Translations under genes and position numbers: made by a program
Part shown: positions 661-20,160 of the stretch, piece by piece
Position numbering within the stretch: position 1 is the first letter of the stretch
How the letters are laid out: each line of letters opens with the position of its first letter
Assembly (NCBI GenBank): GCA_023137195.1
Contig: JAGLPV010000028.1
Coordinates: 1-27,105 of the forward strand
Source: Candidatus Aenigmatarchaeota archaeon
GTDB taxonomy: Archaea; EX4484-52
Length of the DNA: 27,105 nt
Direction of reading: 5' to 3'
Notes under the pieces: generated by a model
Databases searched by the model: none
What the model saw: only the letters and a program-made list of their open reading frames with translations
What the model was told of the DNA's origin: nothing

Positions 661-1257
661 TTATTCTTCATTTTTATTCAAATCTTGTTGCATTTTAATT
701 ATTTCTTTTTTTAATTCTTCAGATACTACTAATTTGGAGATGTGTTTTTGAATAAAATTCTGACAATCCAGTTCTGTTTTATTACACTTTGCTACAGAGG
801 TTATAAATTTATAAGATTCATTAAACGGTAAATTTCCAATAGTGTATCCATTATATTCTAAGAAAGAATTACATGCTATTATGGCTGTTCTTTTATTTCC
901 ATCTGAAAAAGGATGTTTTGATGTGATATTATAAAAAATAAATGCAGCTTTTTTTCTCAATTTTTCTTTTTTATTTTCTGAATCATTATACATTTCTTTA
1001 ACATATTCCATTGTGTAATTCAAATTACTTTTGGACATATACCCTTTGCTTATTGGGTCATCGCTTTGTTCATACATTTTTATTATCAAGTTTCTCAAAA
1101 CAGAGATGTAATGTACAGATAAGTATATTATATCCTTATTTTCAAAATAATTTTTATTTTCTTTTTTAATAAATTTATCAAAAAACATATTAAAAAAAGA
1201 AGCAATTTTTATAAAATAATTATCTACTTTGTTTGATTCTTTTTTTTCTTTAGACAT
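661..1257 (-). CDS. Fic/Doc family protein (Doc-type toxin)
   Basis: Motif HPFSDGNKRTA (Doc-type K) preceded by KAAFIFYNITSK. Likely start is ATG 1257 (the ORF track starts at TTG 1296). Confidence 0.88.
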   Translation of the reverse strand: MSKEKKESNKVDNYFIKIASFFNMFFDKFIKKENKNYFENKDIIYLSVHYISVLRNLIIKMYEQSDDPISKGYMSKSNLNYTMEYVKEMYNDSENKKEKLRKKAAFIFYNITSKHPFSDGNKRTAIIACNSFLEYNGYTIGNLPFNESYKFITSVAKCNKTELDCQNFIQKHISKLVVSEELKKEIIKMQQDLNKNEE

Positions 1258-1325
1258 AGTATTATTATAATTAAAATAATTTAAAATATTGCTCAATATA
1301 ACTTATTTTTCCTGAAAAGTATATA

Positions 1326-1379: not shown

Positions 1380-1751
1380 TTATAATGAATTAAGATGGTT
1401 TTCTATTTCTTCATGTGTCCTGCATGTAGTTGCTCTTCCGGCTTTTATATCTTTATCTGCTCTTTTTATGCTTTCTATTGAGTCTTGATTATTCAGGAAA
1501 ATGAATTCTTCTATTTCTTCTCTCACATCTACTTCTTTATTGAATTGAATAATTCCTGATGTCTCATCAGTCAGATTTTTTGGCTCCGGAAATTCCTCTA
1601 AATAAAGTTCTGTTGCTTCTTTTAAATTTTCAATTGCTTTATCTATTGTTTTTCCTTGGCTTATTGTTTGAGTTTCGGGACATTTGGCGACATACATATC
1701 TTCTTCTTTGTGTATAATTGCACTAAATATAGAAGTGTCTTTGTTTTTCAT
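1380..1751 (-). CDS. HicB-like (UPF0150) antitoxin with an atypical C-terminal extension
   Basis: N-terminal FSAIIHKEEDMYVAKCPE...SQGKTIDKAIENLKEATELYLE is the HicB-like signature. Confidence 0.82.
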   Translation of the reverse strand: MKNKDTSIFSAIIHKEEDMYVAKCPETQTISQGKTIDKAIENLKEATELYLEEFPEPKNLTDETSGIIQFNKEVDVREEIEEFIFLNNQDSIESIKRADKDIKAGRATTCRTHEEIENHLNSL

Positions 1752-1824: not shown

Positions 1825-2154
1825 TTATCCTAAAACTAAAACTTTTTTAATCATCCTTTCAATTTCTTTTAATGTATTGTTTTCAAGCACGCCCATTTTA
1901 CTAATCAATCTTTTTCTGTCAATAGCGCGCATCTGAAATGTTAGAGCAATAGATTTTGATTTCAATCCATTCAATTGTGAAGGAATTACTTCAATTGTAT
2001 GGATGAATCTTAGTGCCTGTATGTTGGAGGTAAAGGGGATAATGATTACTGTATTTGCTTCGCTTTCTGAAAGAATGAGAACTGGTCTTGTTCCTCCCTG
2101 CTCATGACCATTAGCCAGAGGAATTTTTACAAACCATATATCTCCTTTCTTCAT
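1825..2154 (-). CDS. mazF: PemK/MazF family endoribonuclease toxin
   Basis: MKKGDIWFV...GHEQGGTRPVLILS...IIPFTS...QMRAIDRKRL...G pattern. Confidence 0.92.
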   Translation of the reverse strand: MKKGDIWFVKIPLANGHEQGGTRPVLILSESEANTVIIIPFTSNIQALRFIHTIEVIPSQLNGLKSKSIALTFQMRAIDRKRLISKMGVLENNTLKEIERMIKKVLVLG

Positions 2155-2357
2155 AGTGATTTTTCAAAATTATTCAAGGCTTCATCGCTCAAATCATCCC
2201 ATATGTTAAGTTCCTGCTTTAAGTTTATTTGTTTTTGGATTGTGTCAATATAAAGCAAAACTGCTCTTTCCATAATCTCTGTCTCATCGAAACCAAGCGT
2301 TTTTGATGCATTTTTCAGTTTTTCACTTGTTGTTTTTGTTAGTTGCATTCTTGCCAT
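2151..2357 (-). CDS. Putative antitoxin of the MazF toxin (RHH-like N-terminus, acidic C-terminus)
   Basis: ATGA overlap with mazF; C-terminal WDDLSDEALNNFE; likely start ATG 2357, about 25 bp after a TATA box. Confidence 0.72.
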   Translation of the reverse strand: MARMQLTKTTSEKLKNASKTLGFDETEIMERAVLLYIDTIQKQINLKQELNIWDDLSDEALNNFEKSL

Positions 2358-2378
2358 AGTAGTAATGGACGACAAAAA

Positions 2379-2388
2379 TTTATATAAT
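2379..2388 (-). promoter_or_regulatory. Archaeal TATA box for the antitoxin-mazF operon
   Basis: TTATATAAA on the minus strand about 25 bp upstream of ATG 2357; a homologous copy lies at 1772-1781 upstream of the hicB-like gene. Confidence 0.55.
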
Positions 2389-2389
2389 T

Positions 2390-2550
2390 ATCCACGGAAG
2401 ACAATCCACGGGAAGACACAAGAAGACACAGGAACATAGAGGAAGCGAATAAATCGGTTTCTATCGGTTCCGTGCGTTCTGTAGATTAGATTGGTTTTTT
2501 AACTGTTTCTTTCCCTCCAGTTCCCGTGGGTTCCGTGCGTTCCTGTGGAT
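2390..2550 (+). repeat. Palindromic element R1 (compound/nested)
   Basis: Two left ends (ATCCACGG at 2390 and 2404) and two right ends (GGTTCCGTGCGTTCTGTAGAT 2466-2486; TTCCCGTGGGTTCCGTGCGTTCCTGTGGAT 2521-2550). Confidence 0.9.
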
Positions 2551-2589
2551 AAAAGAGAATGGTTAAAAAATGTAAGGGTAAAAAGGTAT

Positions 2590-2979
2590 ATGGAAGATGC
2601 GTCTGCCAAGAAATGGTTATACAATGAGTTGACTGATAAAATTATTGGTGCGGCGATAGAGGTTCATCGTCAATTGGGGACTGGTTTTTTGGAGTATGTT
2701 TACGAGGAGGCTTTGTGCCATGAACTGGATTTGAGAAAAATTTCTTTTGAACGTCAAAAGGAACTGGATATTCATTATAAAGAATTGGTGATACCTCGAA
2801 AATACAAACCGGATTTGATTGTAGAGGATAAGATTATAGTTGAATTGAAGGCAATATCTGTGTTGTGTGGGATTGAAGAGGCGCAGTTGTTGAATTATCT
2901 GAAAGCTACGAATATGCGGGTCGGGTTGTTGTTGAATTTCGGCAGGAAGACTATCGATGTGAGGAGGAAAATTCTATGA
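2590..2979 (+). CDS. GxxExxY family protein (PD-(D/E)XK nuclease-like)
   Basis: LTDKIIGAAIEVHRQLGTGFLEYVY, PDLIVEDKIIVELKA, QLLNYLKAT...GLLLNFG. Likely start is ATG 2590 (the ORF-track GTG 2545 lies inside repeat R1). Confidence 0.93.
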   Translation: MEDASAKKWLYNELTDKIIGAAIEVHRQLGTGFLEYVYEEALCHELDLRKISFERQKELDIHYKELVIPRKYKPDLIVEDKIIVELKAISVLCGIEEAQLLNYLKATNMRVGLLLNFGRKTIDVRRKIL

Positions 2980-2981
2980 CA

Positions 2982-3081
2982 ATCCACGGGAAGACACAGG
3001 AAGGCACAGGAAGGCGTAGGAACCTAGGGGAAAAAGAATCACTTTCTCATGGTTCCCGTGGTTTCCGTGCGTTCCGTGGAT
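2982..3081 (+). repeat. Palindromic element R2
   Basis: AATCCACGG (2981-2989) / CCGTGGATT (3074-3082) perfect terminal inverted repeat; left arm (GxCACAGGAA)n, right arm TTCCCGTGGTTTCCGTGCGTTCCGTGGAT. Confidence 0.92.
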
Positions 3082-3103
3082 TTTATTGGGGGAGTGAGTT
3101 AAG

Positions 3104-4537
3104 ATGAATCAGGATGAATTGAAAGTCATATTACAAAAAGGAGAAGGGCAATTTATAGAATTTAAAGAATCTGCAAAGGGTCTTGACAAAGAGATAGTTG
3201 CTTTTGCAAATGCGGGCGGAGGAAAACTCTTTGTAGGGATAAGTGATAAGAATGAAATAAAGGGAATTAATATTACAAATAAGCTAAGATCTGATGTGCA
3301 GGATATTGCGAGGAATTGCGACCCTTCTGTGAAAATTGATTTAGAGGAAATAGATAATATTATGCTGGTGAGGGTAGAAGAAGGAACAGACAAGCCGTAT
3401 AAATGCAGGGAAGGATTTTATTTAAGACAGGGCGCAAATTCCCAGAAACTAAAGAGAGATGAAATAATTGATTTTGCGATAACTGAAGGCAAAATTAAAT
3501 TTGATTGCCAGATAAACAATAAGTTTGATTTTCTCCAGGATTTTGACGAGGAAAAATTAGATAGATATCTGGAACTTGCAGGAATAGAAAAAAATATTAG
3601 TGTGGAAAGTACATTGGTCAATTTGGGTGTGGCTGTAAAAAAGGGGAAAGAATTTTTCTTTAATAATACAGGGGTTCTTTTTTTCTCCAAAAACCCGGGA
3701 AATTTCTTTTTTTCATCAAAAGTTATCTGCGTCAATTACCAGACTGATGAAAAAGTGAATATCCTCGACAGGAAAATATTTGACCAGGGGCTTATTGATA
3801 ACATAGAAGAGGCAATTAATTATGCAAAGAAGCACATTGATACTGAATTTGAAATTAAAGATTTGGCAAGAAAAGAGATACCTCAATATCCATATGAAGC
3901 AACCAGAGAATGTATAGTCAATGCTATTATGCATAGGGATTATTTTGACGATACGGGGGATATTTTAATAGAGATATTTAAGCACAAAATAGTTGTGTCC
4001 AATCCCGGTGGTCTGGTTAGTGGATTGAAGCCTGAAGATTTTGGAAAAGTCAGCAGGACAAGAAATACTCTTGTTGCTGACCTGCTATTGAGGACAATAT
4101 ATGTTGAAAAACTTGGGACTGGTATCAATAGGATAAAAAACCATATGGAATCGGCAAATCTTCCTGCTCCTTTATTTGAGTACGACAAGCATTCTTTTTT
4201 TGTAACTTTGTTTGATAAGAGTTATGTGGAAGGCGAGAAGGTAGGAGAAAAGGTAGGAGAAAAGGTAGGAGAAAATCAAAAGAAAATATTGAGATTAATT
4301 AGGGAAAATGCATATATTACCTATAATGAACTGTCAGAGAAGATTAAGATAAGTGAAAAAAGCATTTATCAGAATATCTCAAAATTAAAGGAGAAAAAAA
4401 TCATTGAAAGAATTGGTCCGGACAAAGGGGGCTACTGGAAACTATCCACGGAAGACACAGGATGCGGGAAAATCAATAGATTTTCTGCACATTCAACTTC
4501 GTTGAATGACACACAGGAACATAGAGGAAGCGAATAA
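3104..4537 (+). CDS. AlbA_2 (Schlafen-like) domain + RecG-C/HATPase-like domain + C-terminal HTH protein (often annotated ATP-dependent DNA helicase RecG-like or transcriptional regulator)
   Basis: GEGQFIEFKE...AFANAGGG.LFVG; REcIVNAIMHRDY; SNPGGL; RN.LvADL; EKLGTGI; HTH ending RIGPDKGGYW. Confidence 0.9.
   Translation: MNQDELKVILQKGEGQFIEFKESAKGLDKEIVAFANAGGGKLFVGISDKNEIKGINITNKLRSDVQDIARNCDPSVKIDLEEIDNIMLVRVEEGTDKPYKCREGFYLRQGANSQKLKRDEIIDFAITEGKIKFDCQINNKFDFLQDFDEEKLDRYLELAGIEKNISVESTLVNLGVAVKKGKEFFFNNTGVLFFSKNPGNFFFSSKVICVNYQTDEKVNILDRKIFDQGLIDNIEEAINYAKKHIDTEFEIKDLARKEIPQYPYEATRECIVNAIMHRDYFDDTGDILIEIFKHKIVVSNPGGLVSGLKPEDFGKVSRTRNTLVADLLLRTIYVEKLGTGINRIKNHMESANLPAPLFEYDKHSFFVTLFDKSYVEGEKVGEKVGEKVGENQKKILRLIRENAYITYNELSEKIKISEKSIYQNISKLKEKKIIERIGPDKGGYWKLSTEDTGCGKINRFSAHSTSLNDTQEHRGSE
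4232..4275 (+). repeat. In-frame 12-bp tandem repeat (GEKV)x3
   Basis: GAAAAGGTAGGA units encoding GEKVGEKVGEKVGE in the linker before the HTH. Confidence 0.85.
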
Positions 4538-4598
4538 ATAGGGTTTCTGACTGTTTCTTTTTCACCGGTTCCCGTGGGTTCCGTGCGTTCCCGTAGAT
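4444..4598 (+). repeat. Palindromic element R3 with internal double-hairpin module
   Basis: ATCCACGGAAGACACAGGA...TTCCCGTGGGTTCCGTGCGTTCCCGTAGAT; internal GAAAATC-AATA-GATTTTC and CATTCAAC-TTC-GTTGAATG. Confidence 0.93.
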
Positions 4599-4772
4599 AT
4601 CCACGGAAGACACAGGATGCGGGAAAATCAATAGATTTTCTGCACATTCAACTTCGTTGAATGACACACAGGGACATAGAGGAAGCGAATAAATAGTTTT
4701 CTAACCGTTTCTTTCCCATCGTTTCTTATCGTTTCTCATCGTTTCCCGTGGGTTCCGTGCGTTCCTGTGGAT
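4599..4772 (+). repeat. Palindromic element R4, tandem copy of R3
   Basis: First 98 nt are 97/98 identical to R3; the spacer carries ATCGTTTCYY x3 (4718-4747); ends GTTCCTGTGGAT. Confidence 0.93.
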
Positions 4773-4801
4773 TGTTTTCAGGGCGAGTGAATTGGGGCGT
4801 C

Positions 4802-4817
4802 GGTAAAGATTTATAAT
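4802..4817 (+). promoter_or_regulatory. BRE + TATA box for the flippase gene
   Basis: GGTAAAGATTTATAAT about 22 bp before ATG 4838; a similar GTAAAGATATTTATAAT lies at 6001-6017 before the acetyltransferase. Confidence 0.55.
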
Positions 4818-4837
4818 TCTACATCTCTAAACATGTT

Positions 4838-6004
4838 ATGAAAGCAAAACTAAAATCCCTGTTGCAAAGCGACCTGTTAATCAATTCAGGGATGATATTT
4901 TCTGCTTCGTTTTTCGGGGCGTTGTTTATGTTTGTTTCTAATTTGGTTCTTTCCCGGGTGTTTGGTCCTGCTGATTTTGGGATGTATAAGACTGTGTTGG
5001 GGTTGTTTATGTTTGTTCCTGCGCTGGTTGATTTCGGGGGGTCGGCTACGTTGACTAAGTATATTGCGGAGTTTTTGGCGAAAAAGGAAGAGAGGAAGAT
5101 TAATTATCTTGTGCGGTTCTTTTTTAGTGTTAAGGTTACTGCGTCTTTTGTTGTGGGGGGGCTGGCTTATTTGTTCCGGTCTGAGATTGCGGTTGTGTTT
5201 TTGAAGGATGCGTCTTTGGCTTATCTTGTTTTGCCGGGGGCGGTTCTGGCTGTGTTTGCTGTATTTGAGTTGTCGAAGCCTGTCGTTACGGGGTTTCAGA
5301 AGTTCAAACTGTTGAGTGTGTCTAACTTTCTTAGTGCCGGGGCGATAGGGGTTGCTTCTGTGGTGCTTGGGTATTATTGGGGGGTGTATTGGGCTATTGT
5401 CGGATGGGCTGTCGGGTATTTTATCGGGAATTTGATTAATTTTAAGTTTATGGTTGATTGGGGGTTGTTCCGGAAGGTTGAAAGGTTTGATATAATGAGC
5501 GTGTTGAGGAGGTATAGTTTGCCTATGTATGGGATGTATCTTTTGAATATGTTTAATGTTGTGATTATTCCTGTTTTGTCGTTGTTTTTTGCGCCCGTGT
5601 TGATTGGGTATTATGGGTTTGCTTGGACTTTTTATGCCGGGATTTTGTTGATTCCTGCGGCTTTATCAAGAGTTTTATTTCCTAAAATATCGGAATTGAT
5701 TGGGAGGAATGATTTGAGAGGGGCTCAAAATATTCTTAAAAAGATATTTTTGTATTATAGCATAATAGTTTTGGTTGGGATAGTCGGAGTTTTATTCCTT
5801 TCTGAATTTGTTGTTATGTCGGTTGCTCCTATGTATTTGCCTGGTTTGTTCATTTTTAAGGTATTGAATATTACTGGGCTATTGTTAGGGTATTTGTTTA
5901 TATTGAATGGTTATTATAATGGAACGGGTCAGGTTAAAAAGAGCATATTGTCTATGGTAATTTACAATGTGTTGTTGCTGATAGTGAGTTTTTGGATTAT
6001 GTAA
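4838..6004 (+). CDS. Oligosaccharide flippase (Wzx/MOP family)
   Basis: About 11-12 hydrophobic segments; SRVFGPADFGMY, DFG...LTKYIAE, GYY..A...IP.ALSRVLFPKIS. Confidence 0.88.
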   Translation: MKAKLKSLLQSDLLINSGMIFSASFFGALFMFVSNLVLSRVFGPADFGMYKTVLGLFMFVPALVDFGGSATLTKYIAEFLAKKEERKINYLVRFFFSVKVTASFVVGGLAYLFRSEIAVVFLKDASLAYLVLPGAVLAVFAVFELSKPVVTGFQKFKLLSVSNFLSAGAIGVASVVLGYYWGVYWAIVGWAVGYFIGNLINFKFMVDWGLFRKVERFDIMSVLRRYSLPMYGMYLLNMFNVVIIPVLSLFFAPVLIGYYGFAWTFYAGILLIPAALSRVLFPKISELIGRNDLRGAQNILKKIFLYYSIIVLVGIVGVLFLSEFVVMSVAPMYLPGLFIFKVLNITGLLLGYLFILNGYYNGTGQVKKSILSMVIYNVLLLIVSFWIM

Positions 6005-9518: not shown

Positions 9519-10666
9519 TGAACTACCCCCTTAAACAGTTTTTCTGTTTTATCTATGACCTTTTTCCAGTCGTATTTTTTGGATTCTTTGAGTCCGTTTT
9601 TGCTTAATTTTTTCCAGAGTTCTTTATTATTCAATAATTTTTTTATGGCGTTTGCTAAGAGTAAAGGATTTTTTGGTTCAATTAAAAGACCAGTTTTATT
9701 ATTTTTTATTACATAAGGAATACCGCCGATTTTTGTTCCGATTACAGGGCCCCCACATGCCATTGCTTCTAGTAATACCATGCCGAATCCTTCCTGTTCT
9801 GTGGTTGTTGGCAATACAAGAATATCTGCACTTTGATAATATTTAGGCAATGTTTCATCTTTTACAAAACCTGCGAATATTGTGTTTTTGATATTTTGTT
9901 TTTCGCATAGTTTTTTGTATTCTTTTGCATCTCCTTTTCCTACAAGGATAAGATGCGTATTTTTATTTGTTTTATTGACTTTTTTTATGGCGTTTATCAA
10001 TACATCAACCCCCTTGTGTTTATGGAATGTTCCCATGTGTCCCACAAAGAGGATAGTTTTTGAGTTTTTTTTTAGGTTGTATTTTTCTAAAATGTATTTG
10101 CTTTTTTTTGGCTTAAATTTAGTTAGGTCAATTCCCGGGGGAATCCATGAGAGTTTGTTTTTGTGTTTTTTTAAGAATCTTGATTTGTTAAAGCAGAATG
10201 GTGATGGCGTGATAATTTTTGTGCTGTGTTTTAGAGTTAGGGAATTAAAAGTAGGGTTGTACAGATTGCAAAGAAAATTTACAATCTTGTTTGGGTGTAC
10301 ATTGTCATTGTGGTAAGTTAAAATGAAAGGTACTTTTTGTCTTTTGGTGGCATAACATGCCATATCTGCATAATAAGGGACCGGGGTGTTGGCATTTACC
10401 AAGTCGAATTTTTCTTCTTTGAGAAGTTTTGAAATTGTGAAGTACAGGTTTAGTTTTATTGGTGTGTTGGAGAGTATAAAATCTGGTTTTTGGCGGATTA
10501 TTTTTATTCCGTCGATTGTTTCTGTTTTATTCTTTCCTTCTTTTGTTGAGCATAAGACCGTTATTTTATGTCCTTTTTTGATTAGACCTTTTGATAAATT
10601 GTATGCGTAGTTTTCTGCCCCGGCAATATTGGGGAAAAAATAAGGGCAGATCATTAGTATTTTCAT
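9515..10666 (-). CDS. Glycosyltransferase family 4 (GT-B)
   Basis: PYFFPNIAGAE; HKGVDVLI; EGFGMVLLEAMACG; GGIPYVI. Confidence 0.94.
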   Translation of the reverse strand: MKILMICPYFFPNIAGAENYAYNLSKGLIKKGHKITVLCSTKEGKNKTETIDGIKIIRQKPDFILSNTPIKLNLYFTISKLLKEEKFDLVNANTPVPYYADMACYATKRQKVPFILTYHNDNVHPNKIVNFLCNLYNPTFNSLTLKHSTKIITPSPFCFNKSRFLKKHKNKLSWIPPGIDLTKFKPKKSKYILEKYNLKKNSKTILFVGHMGTFHKHKGVDVLINAIKKVNKTNKNTHLILVGKGDAKEYKKLCEKQNIKNTIFAGFVKDETLPKYYQSADILVLPTTTEQEGFGMVLLEAMACGGPVIGTKIGGIPYVIKNNKTGLLIEPKNPLLLANAIKKLLNNKELWKKLSKNGLKESKKYDWKKVIDKTEKLFKGVVQ

Positions 10667-13600
10667 TATTTCACCTCTAATGTTCCGATGATATCTGGCT
10701 CATCTAAACTTACTTTTGGCTTTTCAATATTTGTTTTCGGGATTATTTCAAATATATAATCATCTGATTTTATTACTGTGATATTTCCTATAATCTGACT
10801 ATTCTTTCCATTAACCAAATAAAGTCTTTCTCCTGTTTTTTTGTCATACAAACCTATTTTTATTTTATAATTGCCTTCTTTAACAGTTGGAACATTAATA
10901 TTATATTCTTCTTTTATTATTTCTCCTATATTCCATTGAGAGGTAGGATAAACCACATACTCAGGTTCATGGTCCTGTTGAAATGTCACTTTATTCTTTT
11001 CATCAAGGAAATGGACAAAGACAGTGTAATTGATATTTATTTTATCGATAGATTTCCAAAAACCTGTTATTTTAAATGAATCTCCTGTTTTTAATTCTTT
11101 TTTATCTAAATTGTGTCCTAAAAATATGATTTTGTCATCGTAAATATCCAATGCTTTGTTTGATATATTTGACTCTTGAATGATAATGTTCAAAAGTGTT
11201 TTATTGATTTTTTGAGTTTCTCCGATTACTGGAATTCTGCCTTTTTCAGGAATATAAAAGCCAATATTTAATGAATATTCTCCAATGGCATCATTTGATA
11301 TAACTGTTTGTGTTTCTTTGAATATCTGTCCTTCCTTCCATTGGCTTGTTGGGATAGAGGGCATATGGTCATTTTGAAAACCACTTTTTCCACTATCATT
11401 CCTGAAATGAACAAAAATCATGTAGTTTTGATCTGTTTTGTTTAAGCAGGTCCAGTAATAATTGATTTTGAATTTTTCTTTCTGTTCTATTTTTGTTTTG
11501 TTTAAGTCATATCCCAAAAATTCAAATGTGTTGTTGTAATTTATATTTTGCGGATTTTGAATTTTTGGTGTTTGGTTCAAGAGTTCATAATTTTGATCTA
11601 TCCTCGGCAGTCGTCCTTTTTCATTATATAAACCAACTTTAATGAAATATTCATCTGGTTTTATCTCATCCCAAATGCGAACATCGTACGTTTCTTTTAT
11701 TATCTCCCCTGGTTTCCATTTAGATGTATCATAAAAATCATAAAATGGCATATGATCATAGCCAAAAACAATATCTCTTGATTCATTCAAAAAATGAACA
11801 AAAACTTTATAGCTCTCATTTACTGATTTTAAAGATTTCCAATAATAAGTGATTCTGAACAGATTTCTATTATCTCCAGGAGTATATATTTCAAATATTG
11901 ATTTGTTATTCATCTTACGATTCAAATCATAACCTAAAAATTCTATCTGGTTGTTGAAGTTTATTTTTTTTGGATATTGAATAGAAATATTTTTTGTTTT
12001 AGAAATGAAACTCCATCTAAAATTAAATTTTTTTATTGCATCAACATCATTTGTTAATATAATCATATCTTTGGTATAATAATACTTCTTCATATGGTAC
12101 ATGGCAGTACTATTATCCACAGGTTTAATCTTTTTAATGTCATTATATTTGTCGGCTTTCATTAAAATAAAAACACTTTTATTGGAGTTAAGAGCATTGA
12201 TTATTTCTTTTTTATTGGTCGTATATTTCTTTTCCCCGTTTAATGAATCTAAATAATAATAATCCCATGCAGAAATATCTGTCTTTTTAAAATATGAAAT
12301 TATTTCATAATCATTATGATTTGTTGATTTTAAATCATTAACAAATTGGTGTATAGGAATAATATGCGTATGATATGTTGTAGATACAGCAATATGAGAA
12401 GAAATCAATATAAGATAAGTTATTATCAATAAAGGTATAAAACGCATTATTGTTTTATTTGCCGTGTATTTTATTACTAAATTAATTACGAAAAAGAGCA
12501 GTACTGTGAGAATAACTGCTTTAGATAAATATGTTTGGTTTAATAGGTAATCATTAATAAATTTTATAGATAACTCGATCTTAGGATAGTGGGGATCAAA
12601 TTGAAATTTAGATATTATCGTCACAAATAGAGCAGTAATGGGTAAAAACATAAGAGTTTGAATAAGAATATTTTTAGTTTTATGAATAAAGTCATAAGAC
12701 AATTTAGCAATTAGAATACATAGTGCTGGATATAAAGGGATGATATAATTTGTGGTTTGTCCTTTAGCGTATGTAAAAATTGTAAATACGACAAAAATCC
12801 AACTTAAAAGAAATAAATATTCTTGTCTTTTCTTATTTTTAAATATATTTACTAGTCCATAGATTATTGCAAATAGTGCAAATAGTGCCCATGGATAAAA
12901 ACCCGCATTAATAATATGCAAATAGTATGTTTGTGAATAATGTCCGAAATATTCCTGTGTTGCCCTTATTATAACGTCCTTATTCATTGCATACAAATAT
13001 TTATCTTTATACAACAAATATTGTGATAAAAACCATGGTACTGAAAATAATAACACCAACGGAGAGGATAGCAAAAAATGTTTGTTTTTTAATATTTTTA
13101 AATTTTTTGTTAAAATCAGATATAATATAATTATGAATATTGGTAATGCCCCAGCAACACTTTTTGTTAATATCCCCAAACCAATAGATATGGCGGATAA
13201 ATAGTAATATTTGGGAGATTCTTTTGCCTTAATAAACGAGAATAATGATAAAGTAATTAGAAACACCAATAAACCATCTGTTTCTCCTGTTCTTGCACAG
13301 TGTTCAAATAAGTATTGCGTACATGTCATAAGCATTAAAGAAGCTAAAAAGCCAACATATTTGTTAAATAACTTTCTGCCTAAAAAATAGACCAATACTA
13401 TGGTCAATAGTGCCGCAAATGCAGAGCAAAATCGTGCATTGAATTCATTTATTCCAAAAAATTTGAATATTGTGCCAGTTAGCCAGAGTTCTAATGGTGG
13501 CTTATCTAAGAAAATTTCTCCTTTCCAATATGTATTGAACCAATCTCCTGTTTTTAGAAATTCTTTTGAAACTTGAGCATGAATTGATTCATCGCCCAAT

Positions 13601-14730
13601 AAGCTACTTGTCCCTAAATTATGGAACAAAATAAAAGATGAAAGAACTACTAAAACAAAAACATGAAAATAACTGCTTTTGGCAATAGCAATACTTTTTT
13701 CCTTTAAACTTTTCTTTTTGAATTCCTCGATTCCATGCTTAATAGAGAAAATTTTGATTAAGAAAAATATTTTAAAATCATAATAAAAATTTCTTAGTTT
13801 CTCTTTTACTGTTTCTTTTCTTTTTCCTGACTCTTTTTTCGTAGATTTTTCAAACCAGTGTGTCTTTTTACAAAACGAATTTTTTAATACAACAACATAT
13901 TTCTTGACTTTTTCTGTAATTGCCTCTTTTTCGGAAAAGTGTCCAGACTGCTCTTTTTTGTCTCTCTTTAAACTGTTTTTAAATTTCTCAAAAAAACATT
14001 TGATTCTATCTTTCATGTCTTTTTTCTTTTTTTTGAATTTAGGATAATTCAATCTGGTCTTAATCAATCCAACAAACATCATTGGTGCTTCTTTGAGCGA
14101 AAAAGAAGAATTATCCTGATGCACCCACTTTATTGGGATTTCTTTTATTTCAAACCCATGTCTCTTTATCCTCCACAACAATTCAACATCAAATTCAAAT
14201 CCATTTGTTTTTAATTCAGGCAAAACATCATCAATAGCTTTCTTGCTAAATACTTTTGCGCCGCATTGAGTATCTTTCAAATCAAGCCAGAACATAAATC
14301 TTACAAGATAATTAAATACAATGCTGCCAATATTCCGAAACGCATCTGGTTTTTCTCCAACTATAGCACCTTTAATTCTCCTTGAAGCAATGGTACAGTC
14401 CGTACAACTGTTTATTATTTTTTCAAATTCTATTGGACCGATAGAATCATCAGCATCAGTAAAACCGATTTTATCTCCTTTGGCAAGACCAAAACCTTTT
14501 TTTATTGCCCCTCCTTTTCCTAGTTTTTGAGCAGAATAATAGCATTTGATTTGCTTGTATTTTTTGGATAGTTTTTCTACTATTTTTTTTGTCTTGTCAT
14601 GTCCTTCGACAACAACAACCATTTCGAAATTATATTTTTTGCTTTTGAAATAAGAAGCGTATTTTTCTAATACTGGTTTAATTCTTTTTTCTTCGTTGTA
14701 GGCAGGTACAATAATAGATACTTTCTTCAT
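10666..14730 (-). CDS. Fusion protein: GT2 (dolichyl-phosphate glycosyltransferase-like) + ArnT/PMT-like GT-C transferase + three repeated extracellular beta domains
   Basis: VSIIVPAYNEE, GKGGA, FTDAD, DTQCGAK, FEFDVELL; then DESIHAQVSKE, DKPPL..W, EFNARF.SA, GLGILTK; then three FLG(Y/H)xL...W...Y.VFVHF...DH.P...SxW..G repeats. Confidence 0.9.
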   Translation of the reverse strand: MKKVSIIVPAYNEEKRIKPVLEKYASYFKSKKYNFEMVVVVEGHDKTKKIVEKLSKKYKQIKCYYSAQKLGKGGAIKKGFGLAKGDKIGFTDADDSIGPIEFEKIINSCTDCTIASRRIKGAIVGEKPDAFRNIGSIVFNYLVRFMFWLDLKDTQCGAKVFSKKAIDDVLPELKTNGFEFDVELLWRIKRHGFEIKEIPIKWVHQDNSSFSLKEAPMMFVGLIKTRLNYPKFKKKKKDMKDRIKCFFEKFKNSLKRDKKEQSGHFSEKEAITEKVKKYVVVLKNSFCKKTHWFEKSTKKESGKRKETVKEKLRNFYYDFKIFFLIKIFSIKHGIEEFKKKSLKEKSIAIAKSSYFHVFVLVVLSSFILFHNLGTSSLLGDESIHAQVSKEFLKTGDWFNTYWKGEIFLDKPPLELWLTGTIFKFFGINEFNARFCSAFAALLTIVLVYFLGRKLFNKYVGFLASLMLMTCTQYLFEHCARTGETDGLLVFLITLSLFSFIKAKESPKYYYLSAISIGLGILTKSVAGALPIFIIILYLILTKNLKILKNKHFLLSSPLVLLFSVPWFLSQYLLYKDKYLYAMNKDVIIRATQEYFGHYSQTYYLHIINAGFYPWALFALFAIIYGLVNIFKNKKRQEYLFLLSWIFVVFTIFTYAKGQTTNYIIPLYPALCILIAKLSYDFIHKTKNILIQTLMFLPITALFVTIISKFQFDPHYPKIELSIKFINDYLLNQTYLSKAVILTVLLFFVINLVIKYTANKTIMRFIPLLIITYLILISSHIAVSTTYHTHIIPIHQFVNDLKSTNHNDYEIISYFKKTDISAWDYYYLDSLNGEKKYTTNKKEIINALNSNKSVFILMKADKYNDIKKIKPVDNSTAMYHMKKYYYTKDMIILTNDVDAIKKFNFRWSFISKTKNISIQYPKKINFNNQIEFLGYDLNRKMNNKSIFEIYTPGDNRNLFRITYYWKSLKSVNESYKVFVHFLNESRDIVFGYDHMPFYDFYDTSKWKPGEIIKETYDVRIWDEIKPDEYFIKVGLYNEKGRLPRIDQNYELLNQTPKIQNPQNINYNNTFEFLGYDLNKTKIEQKEKFKINYYWTCLNKTDQNYMIFVHFRNDSGKSGFQNDHMPSIPTSQWKEGQIFKETQTVISNDAIGEYSLNIGFYIPEKGRIPVIGETQKINKTLLNIIIQESNISNKALDIYDDKIIFLGHNLDKKELKTGDSFKITGFWKSIDKININYTVFVHFLDEKNKVTFQQDHEPEYVVYPTSQWNIGEIIKEEYNINVPTVKEGNYKIKIGLYDKKTGERLYLVNGKNSQIIGNITVIKSDDYIFEIIPKTNIEKPKVSLDEPDIIGTLEVK

Positions 14731-18154: not shown

Positions 18155-18193
18155 TATATAAACGTATGGTTTTTTACTATTTTTAAGTGGTAA
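18155..18193 (-). promoter_or_regulatory. TATA box plus upstream operator-like palindrome (copy A of a 39-bp duplication)
   Basis: TTTATATA on the minus strand about 29 bp before ATG 18126; 36/39 identical to 20120-20158. Confidence 0.6.
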
Positions 18194-18207: not shown

Positions 18208-18373
18208 ATTCACGGAACGCACGGAACCCACAGGAAGCGGATTCATTCTCTTCTTCTATGTTCTTGTGAGTTATTCAATGAAATTGAATATGCAGAAAAT
18301 CATAGAAAGTCATCGGTCTTTGACCGATGTGCGGAAAATCAAAGATTTTCCTGCATTCCCGTATCCTGTGGAT
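18208..18373 (-). repeat. Palindromic element R5 (same family as R1-R4, minus orientation)
   Basis: Reverse complement reads ATCCACAGGATACGGGAATGCAGGAAAATCTTTGATTTTCCGCA...CACAAGAACATAGAAGAAG...TTCCTGTGGGTTCCGTGCGTTCCGTGAAT. Confidence 0.9.
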
Positions 18374-18374
18374 T

Positions 18375-19310
18375 TTATTGGGTCTGTTTTTTTGACTCTT
18401 TAATAAGCTCATCAATCCCGTCCTCAAGGCTGTGCTTTGCTGTAAATCCAATGGTTTCTTTTGCTTTTTTCGTATCCGCAAGAGTGTGCATTACATAACA
18501 TTTAATTGGATTTGGAATTACATGTTCCTTTTCAATAGTGGTTCCAAGTTTTTTATTTAAAATATCAATCATTTCATTTATTGTGTATGATTTTCCTGTT
18601 CCTGCGTTGATGAAGTCAGAAAACCCGTTTTTGCCTTCGAGGTGTTTCATCGCGAGGACAAATGCTTCTACAATATCGTCAGCATAGGTAAAGTCGCGGG
18701 TCTGGTTTCCGTCGCCGTAAACGACCGGCTTTTTCCCGTCCTGCAAATCCCACATGAACTGGGATATTAGGTTTGCGTATGTTTTTTTTGCTTTTTCTTT
18801 CTTGCCGTATACAGAGAATAATCTTAATCCTATGACATTTACACCGTGCTGGTTGGCGTACAGTTCAGATATCCTTTCCATTCCATATCTTCCTTCTGTG
18901 TAGTAGTCCGTTACCAGGACTTCCATCTTTTCGTGGTGGTGTGGTTCCTGACCGGAATATACAGAAGAGGTTGATGCAAAGACAACCGGTATTTTTTTTG
19001 ATTTGGCTTTTTCAAGTACATTGATATGCTCGTTTATGATTTTGCCCACCAGAGACGGGTCTTTCTTGTACATTGGCGAGGATGAAGAGATACCGAGGTG
19101 GTAAATTCCGTCAACGTCCTCAAATATTTCATCATTAAAATCTATGTCAAGCACATCTGATTCAATAAATTTTGCATCAGGATGCACGTTTTCTTTTGAG
19201 CCGGTATGTAAATTATCTATGATTATGACTTCGTTGCCTTCTTCTATCAGTCTGTCTGCCAGGGTTGATCCTACAAACCCGGCTCCGCCGGTTACTATGT
19301 ATTTTTTCAT
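18375..19310 (-). CDS. NAD-dependent epimerase/dehydratase (extended SDR)
   Basis: VTGGAGFVGS, IDNLHTG, ASTSSVY, LRLFSVYG, YGDGNQTRDFTY. True start is ATG 19310 (ORF track 19379 overlaps the upstream gene). Confidence 0.92.
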   Translation of the reverse strand: MKKYIVTGGAGFVGSTLADRLIEEGNEVIIIDNLHTGSKENVHPDAKFIESDVLDIDFNDEIFEDVDGIYHLGISSSSPMYKKDPSLVGKIINEHINVLEKAKSKKIPVVFASTSSVYSGQEPHHHEKMEVLVTDYYTEGRYGMERISELYANQHGVNVIGLRLFSVYGKKEKAKKTYANLISQFMWDLQDGKKPVVYGDGNQTRDFTYADDIVEAFVLAMKHLEGKNGFSDFINAGTGKSYTINEMIDILNKKLGTTIEKEHVIPNPIKCYVMHTLADTKKAKETIGFTAKHSLEDGIDELIKESKKQTQ

Positions 19311-19312
19311 AT

Positions 19313-19990
19313 TTATTTCCCTCTTTTTGTTAATTTCTTTTTTATCAAAAATCCTAAATTTAAAAACCCGTCTTTCCATGCGCAGAGTTTTACAGTTCCT
19401 GTCCTTATTTTGTAATGGACAGGCACTTCTTTTACCTTGAATCCGTTTCGGAAAGCTTCTATCTTGATTTCTTCTGAAAATGGCATCCCGTCGCTTGTCA
19501 GCTCCAGGTCGTCAAGGAGTTTTTTCTTAAATGCCCACATGCCGGACTGGGAATCGTTGATATTGGAAGAATGCAGTAGATTCATTATTTTTGTCAGGAT
19601 TTTGTTGCCAATAATATTTCTTGGTGTCATTGCATTTGCTTCCATGCTTGCGAACCTGTTTGTTGTGATGAAGTCGAGATTTTCTTTTATGAGCATGTTT
19701 ACCAGTTCAGGTATTTTTTCAGCAGGATAAGTGTTGTCTGCGTCAAGAGTCACAATTATGTCTCCTTTTGCATGTTCAAATCCTGTCCTATATGCTCTGC
19801 CGTATCCCTTTCGTTTTTCAATTATTACGCGTGCTCCCCTGGATTCTGCTATTTTGACAGTGATGTCATGTGAGTCTCCGTCGACAACTATTATCTCTGT
19901 TTTTCCCGGGAGTTTTCTCAGGGGGATTGAGTCAATCACTTTGCCGATTCCGGATTCCTCGTTTAATGCAGGTATTATTATGCTTATCAT
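19313..19990 (-). CDS. Glycosyltransferase family 2 (dolichol-phosphate glycosyltransferase-like)
   Basis: ISIIIPALNEE, VVDGDSHD, GYGRAY, TLDADNTY, DSQSGMWAF. Confidence 0.93.
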   Translation of the reverse strand: MISIIIPALNEESGIGKVIDSIPLRKLPGKTEIIVVDGDSHDITVKIAESRGARVIIEKRKGYGRAYRTGFEHAKGDIIVTLDADNTYPAEKIPELVNMLIKENLDFITTNRFASMEANAMTPRNIIGNKILTKIMNLLHSSNINDSQSGMWAFKKKLLDDLELTSDGMPFSEEIKIEAFRNGFKVKEVPVHYKIRTGTVKLCAWKDGFLNLGFLIKKKLTKRGK

Positions 19991-20119: not shown

Positions 20120-20160
20120 TATATAAATGTATGGTTTTTTACTATTTTTTAGTAGTAAAA
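20120..20160. promoter_or_regulatory. Copy B of the 39-bp promoter/operator duplication; TTTTACTA-N8-TAGTAAAA palindrome
   Basis: 36/39 identity with 18155-18193; perfect 8-bp arms at 20137-20144 and 20153-20160. Confidence 0.55.

Follow-up and report, generated by a model that had tools for sequence, protein, structure and literature searches.

GxxExxY genes bracketed by hairpin repeats in unrelated microbes suggest an undescribed gene-plus-repeat mobile system

A stretch of 27,105 nucleotides (nt) from a Candidatus Aenigmatarchaeota archaeon (contig JAGLPV010000028.1; the whole stretch is called the window below) carries a small gene of the GxxExxY family between two imperfect palindromes, R1 and R2, followed by an AlbA_2/Schlafen-type gene and by two further palindromes, R3 and R4; a fifth, R5, stands alone further along (Table 1). 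The order R1-GxxExxY-R2-AlbA_2-R3-R4 had been read by a first-pass annotation of this DNA and is confirmed by the list of open reading frames (ORFs) together with profile matches. The same annotation proposed that the GxxExxY protein is the enzyme that cuts or propagates the palindromes. Here, hairpins were found to bracket GxxExxY genes in numerous unrelated microbes, a pattern suggestive of an undescribed gene-plus-repeat mobile system.

Each of the five elements folds as a long imperfect hairpin (z between -3.0 and -5.7 as RNA and between -1.5 and -5.0 as DNA), with similar energies on both strands. A profile of the elements, which the first-pass annotation had advised building, was made from the alignment of R1-R5; over the window it recovers exactly the five elements that the annotation had delimited, all at full length (E from 5.5e-52 to 2.8e-20). 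No sixth full-length match was present in 354,948 bases comprising the window and other loci analysed, and elsewhere only matches of right-arm length occurred. The 12-mer TTCCGTGCGTTC of the right arm has nine matches in the window at no more than two mismatches, six of them exact, where 0.80 would be expected, and a count of nine was reached by none of 100 shuffles. R1-R4 had been described as co-oriented; R5 lies on the minus strand, where it begins 2 nt past the stop codon of an epimerase gene (18375-19379, minus strand). As for the proposed termini, the end GT(G/A)(G/A)AT holds in the window (GTGGAT, GTAGAT or GTGAAT), with other sequences in other lineages; the start ATCCAC(G/A)GG has to be shortened to ATCCAC(G/A)G, because R1, R3 and R4 begin with ATCCACGGA.

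The elements are modular and fall into two size classes, a short one of 84-100 nt (R2 and the inner part of R1) and a long one of 155-174 nt (R3, R4, R5 and the outer part of R1) containing additional small internal hairpins. R1 is a composite of both: its outer frame is of the long type, with a left end like those of R3 and R4 and a right part 82% identical to the right part of R3, and inside this frame lies a short, R2-like element (2404-2487). Over its left 99 nt, R4 matches R3 at 99% identity. Each arm repeats units of about 9-10 nt in tandem, CAC(G/A)GGAAG-like on the left and TTCCGTG(N)G-like on the right, with 2-4 units per arm. No target-site duplication is visible at the five copies, and R4 had no match in 72,556 plasmid records. 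A scan of the window at Rfam gathering thresholds gave large-subunit ribosomal RNA (rRNA) at 1-339 and nothing on the elements, while an E-value scan of positions 2300-4900 returned four matches far below gathering scores (best E = 0.44), which were taken as chance.

Table 1. Features of the window discussed in the text
Feature	Positions	Strand	Description
R1	2390..2550	+	composite hairpin element
GxxExxY gene (PD-(D/E)XK, PF13366 / TIGR04256)	2590..2979	+	129 aa; Pfam and NCBIfam profile matches
R2	2982..3081	+	short-type hairpin element
R3	4444..4598	+	long-type hairpin element with small hairpin modules inside
R4	4599..4772	+	long-type hairpin element, abuts R3 directly
R5	18208..18373	-	solo long-type hairpin element, GxxExxY gene not nearby
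AlbA_2/Schlafen + HATPase_c_4 + winged helix-turn-helix gene	3104..4537	+	adjoins the GxxExxY unit
Doc/Fic	661-1296	-	toxin-antitoxin-type gene between rRNA and R1
HicB-like	1380-1751	-	toxin-antitoxin-type gene
MazF	1825-2154	-	toxin-antitoxin-type gene
74-aa ORF	2151-2375	-	overlaps MazF start

The protein encoded between R1 and R2 is a clear member of its family (PF13366, E = 3.2e-42, 144 bits against a cut-off of 22; TIGR04256, E = 8.3e-45, 151.9 bits against an NCBIfam cut-off of 35), and its nearest named relatives, 72-78% identical, come from Methanophagales archaea. The ORF as listed begins at a GTG at 2545, within the end of R1; because the relatives are typically 128 amino acids (aa) long, the start is most likely the ATG at 2590. 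R2 follows the stop codon after 2 nt and ends 22 nt ahead of the AlbA_2 start. In 37 aligned sequences G30, E35, Y38, D75, K87, N116 and F117 are invariant and E85 is conserved in at least 90%; given the conservation of E35, D75 and E85-x-K87, the PD-(D/E)XK set E...D...ExK is therefore intact. Foldseek, run with a predicted structure of high confidence (predicted local distance difference test score 92.8), returned PD-(D/E)XK proteins only (Cas4 SSO0001 4ic1, RecE, lambda exonuclease and Hjc), at template-modelling scores of at most 0.55, and a sequence search of the PDB gave nothing at E <=1.

Tandem two-domain forms of 250-295 aa make up 34 of 150 family representatives. The catalytic residues persist in the first domain (E in 33 of the 34, D in 31, E in 30, K in 31) and are mostly gone from the second (E in 6, D in 5, K in 5), which retains the G, the Y and the NF pair. 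Such an arrangement would fit a dimer in need of one active site. The family is very large: a search of 1.84 billion proteins at E <=0.001 yielded 20,009 GxxExxY/PDDEXK_3 clusters at 50% identity, and it is the source of the 150 representatives. A reading of GxxExxY as a defence system was considered and dropped, with no PADLOC family and no PHROGs match.

The association of these genes with hairpins was examined across taxa in a sample made up of the window and all 10 places found in 8 records among the 72,556 plasmid records, giving 11 loci from nine organisms: the window archaeon, one member each of the Spirochaetota, Fusobacteriota, Gemmatimonadota and Pseudomonadota, and four Bacteroidota. 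Each of three queries, one being the window protein and two being distant members of the family, returned the same 8 records, and because the loci were picked by protein similarity alone they are unbiased as to their flanks. The 8 records are all large, non-mobilizable, chromosome-like replicons or contigs, and no GxxExxY match was found in 50,697 phage records.

By eye, all 11 loci carry flanking arm-type repeats composed of tandem 8-11-nt units, in several arrangements. The gene lies inside a split hairpin, with a purine-rich arm upstream and a pyrimidine-rich arm downstream, in Bacteroides finegoldii, Bernardetia, Sphingomonas (where the right arm falls within the end of the annotated GxxExxY ORF) and Treponema (a weak case, with 11-nt arms). 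Complete hairpins stand on both sides of the gene in the window, at two paralogues of Gemmatirosa (L036 and L037) and in Prevotella nigrescens, which has three tandem hairpin copies downstream. Another Gemmatirosa paralogue has a complete hairpin on its downstream side only. In Persicobacter a hairpin precedes the gene and arm-type repeats follow it, and on the Fusobacteria plasmid the gene is flanked at either side by direct repeats of about 50 nt. CRCAGAGGA-type arms are common to Bacteroides and one of the Gemmatirosa paralogues, across phyla and with proteins that are 47% identical.

These arrangements were captured in a combined score for 200-nt flanks, taken as the best of upstream/downstream inverted similarity, upstream/downstream direct similarity and self-hairpin, with 68 ORFs from the same loci as controls. 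A score of at least 34 was reached by 9 of the 11 GxxExxY loci, all except Treponema and Persicobacter, and by 5 of the 68 controls (Fisher 4.7e-7, Mann-Whitney 2.7e-6), several of which owe it to solo hairpins of the same genomes. An earlier flank score, which used 120-nt flanks without the self-hairpin term and missed loci with a one-sided complete hairpin, gave p = 1.9e-4. Strict tandem periodicity of 8-11 nt was seen at 5 of 11 GxxExxY loci and 3 of 71 controls (p = 7.7e-4), one of these three being the gene next to R4. Moreover, the G-rich arm comes first in the sense of the gene in 14 of 16 informative cases (p = 0.004, the cases not being independent), and in the purine arms GGAGG-like runs stand just upstream of the start codon.

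The association was also evident within a single replicon. Plasmid 1 of Gemmatirosa kalamazoonensis carries three GxxExxY paralogues, 33-59% identical, each adjoining a different hairpin family, with the arm units CACGCGGAT, CGCAGAGGA and GGACTGAAGAA. On the two Gemmatirosa replicons these families occupy at least 40 and at least 40, at least 40 and 25, and 7 and 10 places, rough counts since palindromes can score on both strands, and solo hairpins far outnumber GxxExxY genes. All three families are confined to the two Gemmatirosa records among the matches listed. In 150 kb of plasmid 1 a generic detector found 16 periodic-arm hairpins, and none in block-shuffled sequence. Five of the 16 lie within 250 nt of the three GxxExxY genes, where 0.27 would be expected (P = 4.7e-6). 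Only two pairs of hairpins are closer together than 2 kb, at gaps of 517 and 502 nt, and both bracket a GxxExxY gene; downstream of the third gene a hairpin follows after 74 nt. No other bracketed gene was found in these 150 kb. The paralogue bracketed by CGCAGAGGA hairpins appears frameshifted, being recovered as two tblastn pieces (L036, 1441-1869), and its hairpin family is the most abundant seen despite the state of the partner gene.

Comparison with relatives at two sites indicates what is gained or lost. In Bacteroides finegoldii the GxxExxY ORF and its two arms lie between radA and the gene of a flavin adenine dinucleotide (FAD)-dependent protein; in Parabacteroides distasonis radA and the FAD gene are 13 nt apart, without arms, and Phocaeicola massiliensis has an unrelated 215-aa ORF at this site. 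In Sphingomonas parapaucimobilis the arm-ORF-arm arrangement lies between fabD and fabG, which in S. paeninsulae are a short spacer apart, again without arms. From these two empty-site comparisons, arms and ORF are therefore one insertion or deletion unit of about 440-470 nt, positioned between a stop codon and the start of the next gene, and no target-site duplication is visible at the two filled sites. As neither ORF nor arms are present in the relatives, the arms were not there before the gene at these two sites; a two-step history is possible, since the genomes compared differ in species or genus. A solo hairpin 2.3 kb away in B. finegoldii shares its 14-nt ends, TTCACCACAGAGGA...TCCTCTGTGGTGAA, with the gene-bearing copy.

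Traces of the arms may also be found in the proteins themselves. As a family-wide proxy, extensions of at least 12 residues were collected from the 150 representatives, 32 of them N-terminal and 39 C-terminal. Three-residue periodicity was present in 5 of the 32 N-extensions (0.28 expected from shuffles) and 14 of the 39 C-extensions (1.6 expected, with a maximum of 5 in 200 shuffles). Peptides of the purine-arm kind occur in 9 of the 32 N-extensions and one of the 39 C-extensions, those of the pyrimidine-arm kind in 12 of the 39 C-extensions and 2 of the 32 N-extensions. We infer that these peptides back-translate to arms. Among the extensions of seven close homologues, strict three-residue periodicity was seen in none, purine-arm peptides were present in four, and by eye two more resemble an in-frame pyrimidine arm. 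Furthermore, 10 of 21 longer relatives, several of them named Methanophagales, are apparent precorrin-2 methyltransferase-GxxExxY fusions; in the two of these examined the linker has an arm-like peptide that is also an N-extension in close homologues. They are probably products of a conserved insertion at the end of the methyltransferase gene and not true fusions. Four other 'fusions' examined, to housekeeping enzymes, have similar arm-like linkers. For annotation, this would mean that arms translated in frame produce spurious extensions at the N and C termini of proteins as well as spurious fusions with housekeeping enzymes.

Arms like those of the window are also found in other genomes. A contig scan of a genome collection with a 20-nt right-arm pattern gave 21 loci in unrelated taxa, of which about 12 are, by reading, hairpins of the same type, with CCACGGAA-like units in one arm and TTCCGTGG-like units in the other. 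Their hosts are Vicinamibacterales (4 loci), two Thermoplasmatota genomes, Ohtaekwangia, Leyella, a gammaproteobacterium, a planctomycete and Opitutaceae, and the remaining loci are chance or coding matches by appearance. Such hairpins sit between ordinary housekeeping genes, some of them between divergent genes. Two Leyella stercorea genomes share one between the genes for a LOG-family protein and a peptidase S46 (L008, 5730-6310; L014, 5231-5555) and differ there by about 150 nt, which correspond to two further copies of the pyrimidine arm. In two Streptomyces genomes (L012 and L019, around 6001) the 20-nt pattern lies in tandem GTTCCGTGC-like 9-mers with no obvious complementary arm.

Judged from sequence comparison, the best reading of these observations is a gene-repeat partnership of the kind formed by REPINs (doublets of repetitive extragenic palindromic, or REP, sequences) and RAYTs (REP-associated tyrosine transposases), or by miniature inverted-repeat transposable elements (MITEs) and an autonomous element. 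The REP/RAYT-like part of the first-pass proposal thus gains support from the flanks across taxa, the Gemmatirosa replicon and the two indel sites; its other part, an analogue of integron attC sites, does not, as the ends lack the attC core. R1-R5 would belong to a family of non-coding hairpin elements partnered with the GxxExxY protein. Read along the sense strand of the gene beside it, such an element has a G/purine-rich first arm and a C/pyrimidine-rich second arm. The coding form would be arm-GxxExxY-arm or, as in the window, hairpin-GxxExxY-hairpin, and the far more numerous solo hairpins would be its ORF-less relatives. GxxExxY itself, a small PD-(D/E)XK nuclease presumably acting as a dimer, may recognise the folded or iterated arms and nick or cut at or near the ends of the elements; the cut could then lead to the copying or relocation of the hairpins and of the GxxExxY cassette into short intergenic spacers at gene ends. 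We give an even chance to the proposition that the nuclease acts in this way on the hairpins and thereby spreads both them and its own cassette. A bolder version is possible but doubtful, namely that the unit of about 450 bp is an autonomous mobile element whose sole protein is a PD-(D/E)XK nuclease or nickase of about 125 aa, accompanied by REPIN-like, ORF-less hairpins in the spacers of Bacteria and Archaea.

No description of a GxxExxY-hairpin partnership was found in the literature searched, nor, with the TIGR04256 curators' text outside the scope of the search, any account of the role of GxxExxY or of a link to repeats, and the arm sequences of the window led to no relevant paper there. 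Several points weigh against the partnership. Two papers that name the GxxExxY family give no role for it: a 2012 survey of PD-(D/E)XK proteins lists the function of PDDEXK_3 as 'Unknown' and notes 'multiple transfers', and the mention in a paper on reverse transcriptases is incidental. The sample is small, with three of its 11 loci from one replicon. The co-phylogeny of repeat and protein that had been put forward as a check could not be detected, protein identity and flank similarity being uncorrelated (Mantel r = 0.047, p = 0.37, n = 11), and the closest paralogues (59% identical) are flanked by unrelated arms; simple sequence-specific co-evolution is therefore unsupported. The second Gemmatirosa replicon carries all three hairpin families and no GxxExxY match, and the 150 kb of plasmid 1 (L038-L040) contain more hairpin families, with units like ACAGGATGA and CGTGGCTG, that adjoin no GxxExxY gene. 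None of the 21 loci with window-type arms has a GxxExxY gene within 6 kb, and in the window itself three of the five elements, R3, R4 and R5, stand apart from the gene (the adjacency of the other two has P = 0.01 by chance). Finally, stem mismatches are balanced (G.T 14, A.C 13), and because there is no strand-specific signal in them, a DNA role of the hairpins is inseparable from an RNA role.

Some of these points would suit a different history, unlikely in our judgement, in which the hairpins are independent host repeats, spread or maintained in some other way, and a selfish gene for a homing-type nuclease, GxxExxY, inserts preferentially at or next to them, for example through cleavage of the hairpin and copying of the gene into the break as it is repaired. 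PD-(D/E)XK homing endonucleases exist, and the excess of solo hairpins over genes, their occurrence on a replicon without a GxxExxY match, the unrelated hairpin families beside close paralogues, the lack of a co-phylogeny signal and the placement of the gene inside a split hairpin at four loci are all in keeping with such homing. At both empty sites, however, the relatives are without arms as well as ORF, and no genome shows near-identical gene copies at several of its hairpins, the Gemmatirosa paralogues having diverged to 33-59% identity. We consider it less probable still that the arms are cis-acting stems for the processing, stability or translation of the transcript of a small mobile GxxExxY cassette, comparable to the stems that RNase III cuts in intervening sequences (IVS) of 23S rRNA, with solo hairpins as scars and the target of the nuclease elsewhere. 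This would account for genes enclosed in a stem that separates operon genes of one direction (fabD-fabG, radA-FAD gene), a position in which looping out would reduce polar effects, for the 5' position of the G-rich arm in the 14 of 16 cases and for the GGAGG-like runs before the start codon; it also has an analogue in the Coxiella 23S rRNA IVS, described in the accessible part of its account as a 428-nt selfish element with an ORF (PMC4990558). However, G.U-compatible mismatches on the sense strand are not in excess over A.C mismatches, the two strands fold with similar energies, divergent genes flank some of the solo hairpins, and scars alone fail to explain one family's at least 40 places per replicon with well-kept arms.

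Coincidence, the elements being ordinary MITEs or REP-like repeats with no tie to GxxExxY and the region downstream of the rRNA operon being rich in junk, is already disfavoured and seems very improbable. It can draw on the separation of R3, R4 and R5 from the gene, on the toxin-antitoxin genes in the same region, on the P of 0.01 for adjacency in the window alone and on the 21 arm-bearing loci elsewhere without GxxExxY within 6 kb. The cross-taxon tests, the within-replicon test and the empty sites all oppose it, R4 is without a match among the plasmid records, and no transposase family occurs among the 24 window ORFs scanned. Scarcely credible, finally, is an integron-like array without an integrase (a cluster of attC sites lacking integron-integrases, CALIN), in which the hairpins would be attC sites and GxxExxY and AlbA_2 cargo. 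The co-oriented succession gene-hairpin-gene-hairpin-hairpin, with imperfect palindromes of 100-174 nt after each gene, is what suggests it; the ends are ATCCAC...GTGGAT and not an attC core, no integrase or recombinase Pfam family is among the hits of the 24 ORFs, R5 and the hairpins of other genomes are dispersed singly among housekeeping genes, and in 150 kb of Gemmatirosa the bracketed genes are GxxExxY only.

The AlbA_2 gene that follows R2 probably stands outside the GxxExxY-hairpin system, to judge by the surroundings of its relatives. Of 115 matching records six were compared, and none of the six scored above 22 on upstream/downstream flank similarity, inverted or direct; no AlbA_2 gene lies within 6 kb of any of the 21 arm loci. 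Just upstream of one relative, on a Chlorohelix plasmid, there is a small hairpin with AATCCCGCA-type units, on one side only (L034, about 1420-1475). In the window the AlbA_2 ORF extends 94 nt into R3 (4444-4537), which supplies its last 31 codons and the stop; the ORF is without a stop of its own before R3, and therefore R3 sits exactly at the end of the gene. The encoded protein matches the PADLOC model pAgo over its N-terminal 385 residues (E = 3.1e-27) and phrog_12156, 'DNA helicase' (E = 7.3e-82), and may be a defence-type protein. A 12-nt tandem repeat within the gene (4228-4275) encodes an EKVG-like tetrapeptide just before the C-terminal winged-helix domain.

The rRNA at 1-339 is the 3' end of a large-subunit gene and scores best with the archaeal model (266 bits). 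Beyond R4 follows a polysaccharide and glycosyltransferase cluster, with R5 inside it; GAPDH and many glycosyltransferases of the window are ordinary Pfam matches. One ORF of 1354 aa (10666-14730, minus strand) joins a family-2 glycosyltransferase domain to a PMT_2 domain (dolichyl-phosphate-mannose transferase-like). A 39-nt direct repeat beginning TATATAAA (18155-18193 and 20120-20158, 92% identical) is intergenic at both positions within the cluster, one copy lying directly beside R5, and may be a duplicated promoter. Among the Pfam hits of the 24 window ORFs scanned there was no transposase, integrase, recombinase or Y1_Tnp family.

Should the partnership be functional, it would be a second independent invention of a long-lived intragenomic replicator of the REPIN-RAYT type, on a different nuclease fold. 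It would also account, in many phyla, for a class of intergenic hairpins and for extended or 'fusion' ORFs of odd appearance, and offer a compact structure-guided or repeat-guided nuclease for study. The autonomous-element version, if true, would define a class of prokaryotic mobile DNA that is both new and unusually small, and would assign a role to the very large GxxExxY family.

Among known systems REPIN-RAYT is one of the closest counterparts. As described in the accessible parts of two accounts (PMC3337134; bioRxiv 10.1101/2022.05.22.493013), REPIN-RAYT systems are for the most part inherited vertically, to which the near absence of GxxExxY from plasmid records and its absence from the phage records searched correspond, and they consist of multi-copy intergenic palindromes in which two inverted arms form a long hairpin. 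They further include a few enzyme genes bracketed by their own type of repeat, with different types for different paralogues, and several gene-family pairs can coexist in one genome, all of which has parallels here. The GxxExxY protein, however, is a PD-(D/E)XK protein of about 125 aa and not a Y1/HUH transposase like TnpA of IS200/IS605, and because its enzyme is not a Y1 transposase the GxxExxY-hairpin system is not a member of REPIN-RAYT. A REP is a single GC-rich palindrome headed by GTAG, whereas the arms described here are tandem 8-11-nt units with purine/pyrimidine asymmetry; moreover, bacteria carry the GxxExxY system, and the window protein has archaeal sequences as its closest named relatives.

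MITEs with an autonomous insertion sequence resemble the system in that terminal inverted repeats are common to the coding form (about 450 bp) and the short ORF-less forms, and in that the GxxExxY unit is present or absent as a whole at two sites. They differ in that no target-site duplication is visible, either at the window copies or at the two filled sites, and in that no known transposase fold acts alone in a GxxExxY unit; to our knowledge, the coding form would be far smaller than any known insertion sequence. With integron attC arrays the window shares imperfect palindromes after each co-oriented gene. The attC core is RYYYAAC...GTTRRRY, and it was not found at the element ends, which read ATCCAC(G/A)G...GT(G/A)(G/A)AT; the window further differs from such arrays in lacking an integrase, and the elements in being dispersed as single copies. 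The ORF-bearing IVS of 23S rRNA encode the four-helix-bundle protein S23p. They likewise place a small selfish ORF in the loop of a long stem within a host transcript, according to the accessible part of the account cited above (PMC4990558). In contrast, GxxExxY elements lie outside rRNA, contain another ORF family and have many dispersed ORF-less copies. BOX, ERIC, Correia and RPE, finally, are modular enzyme-less repeats. They share with the present elements modular interiors, an intergenic position near gene ends and occasional ORF read-through, but beside the GxxExxY-type repeats a specific protein-coding partner recurs.

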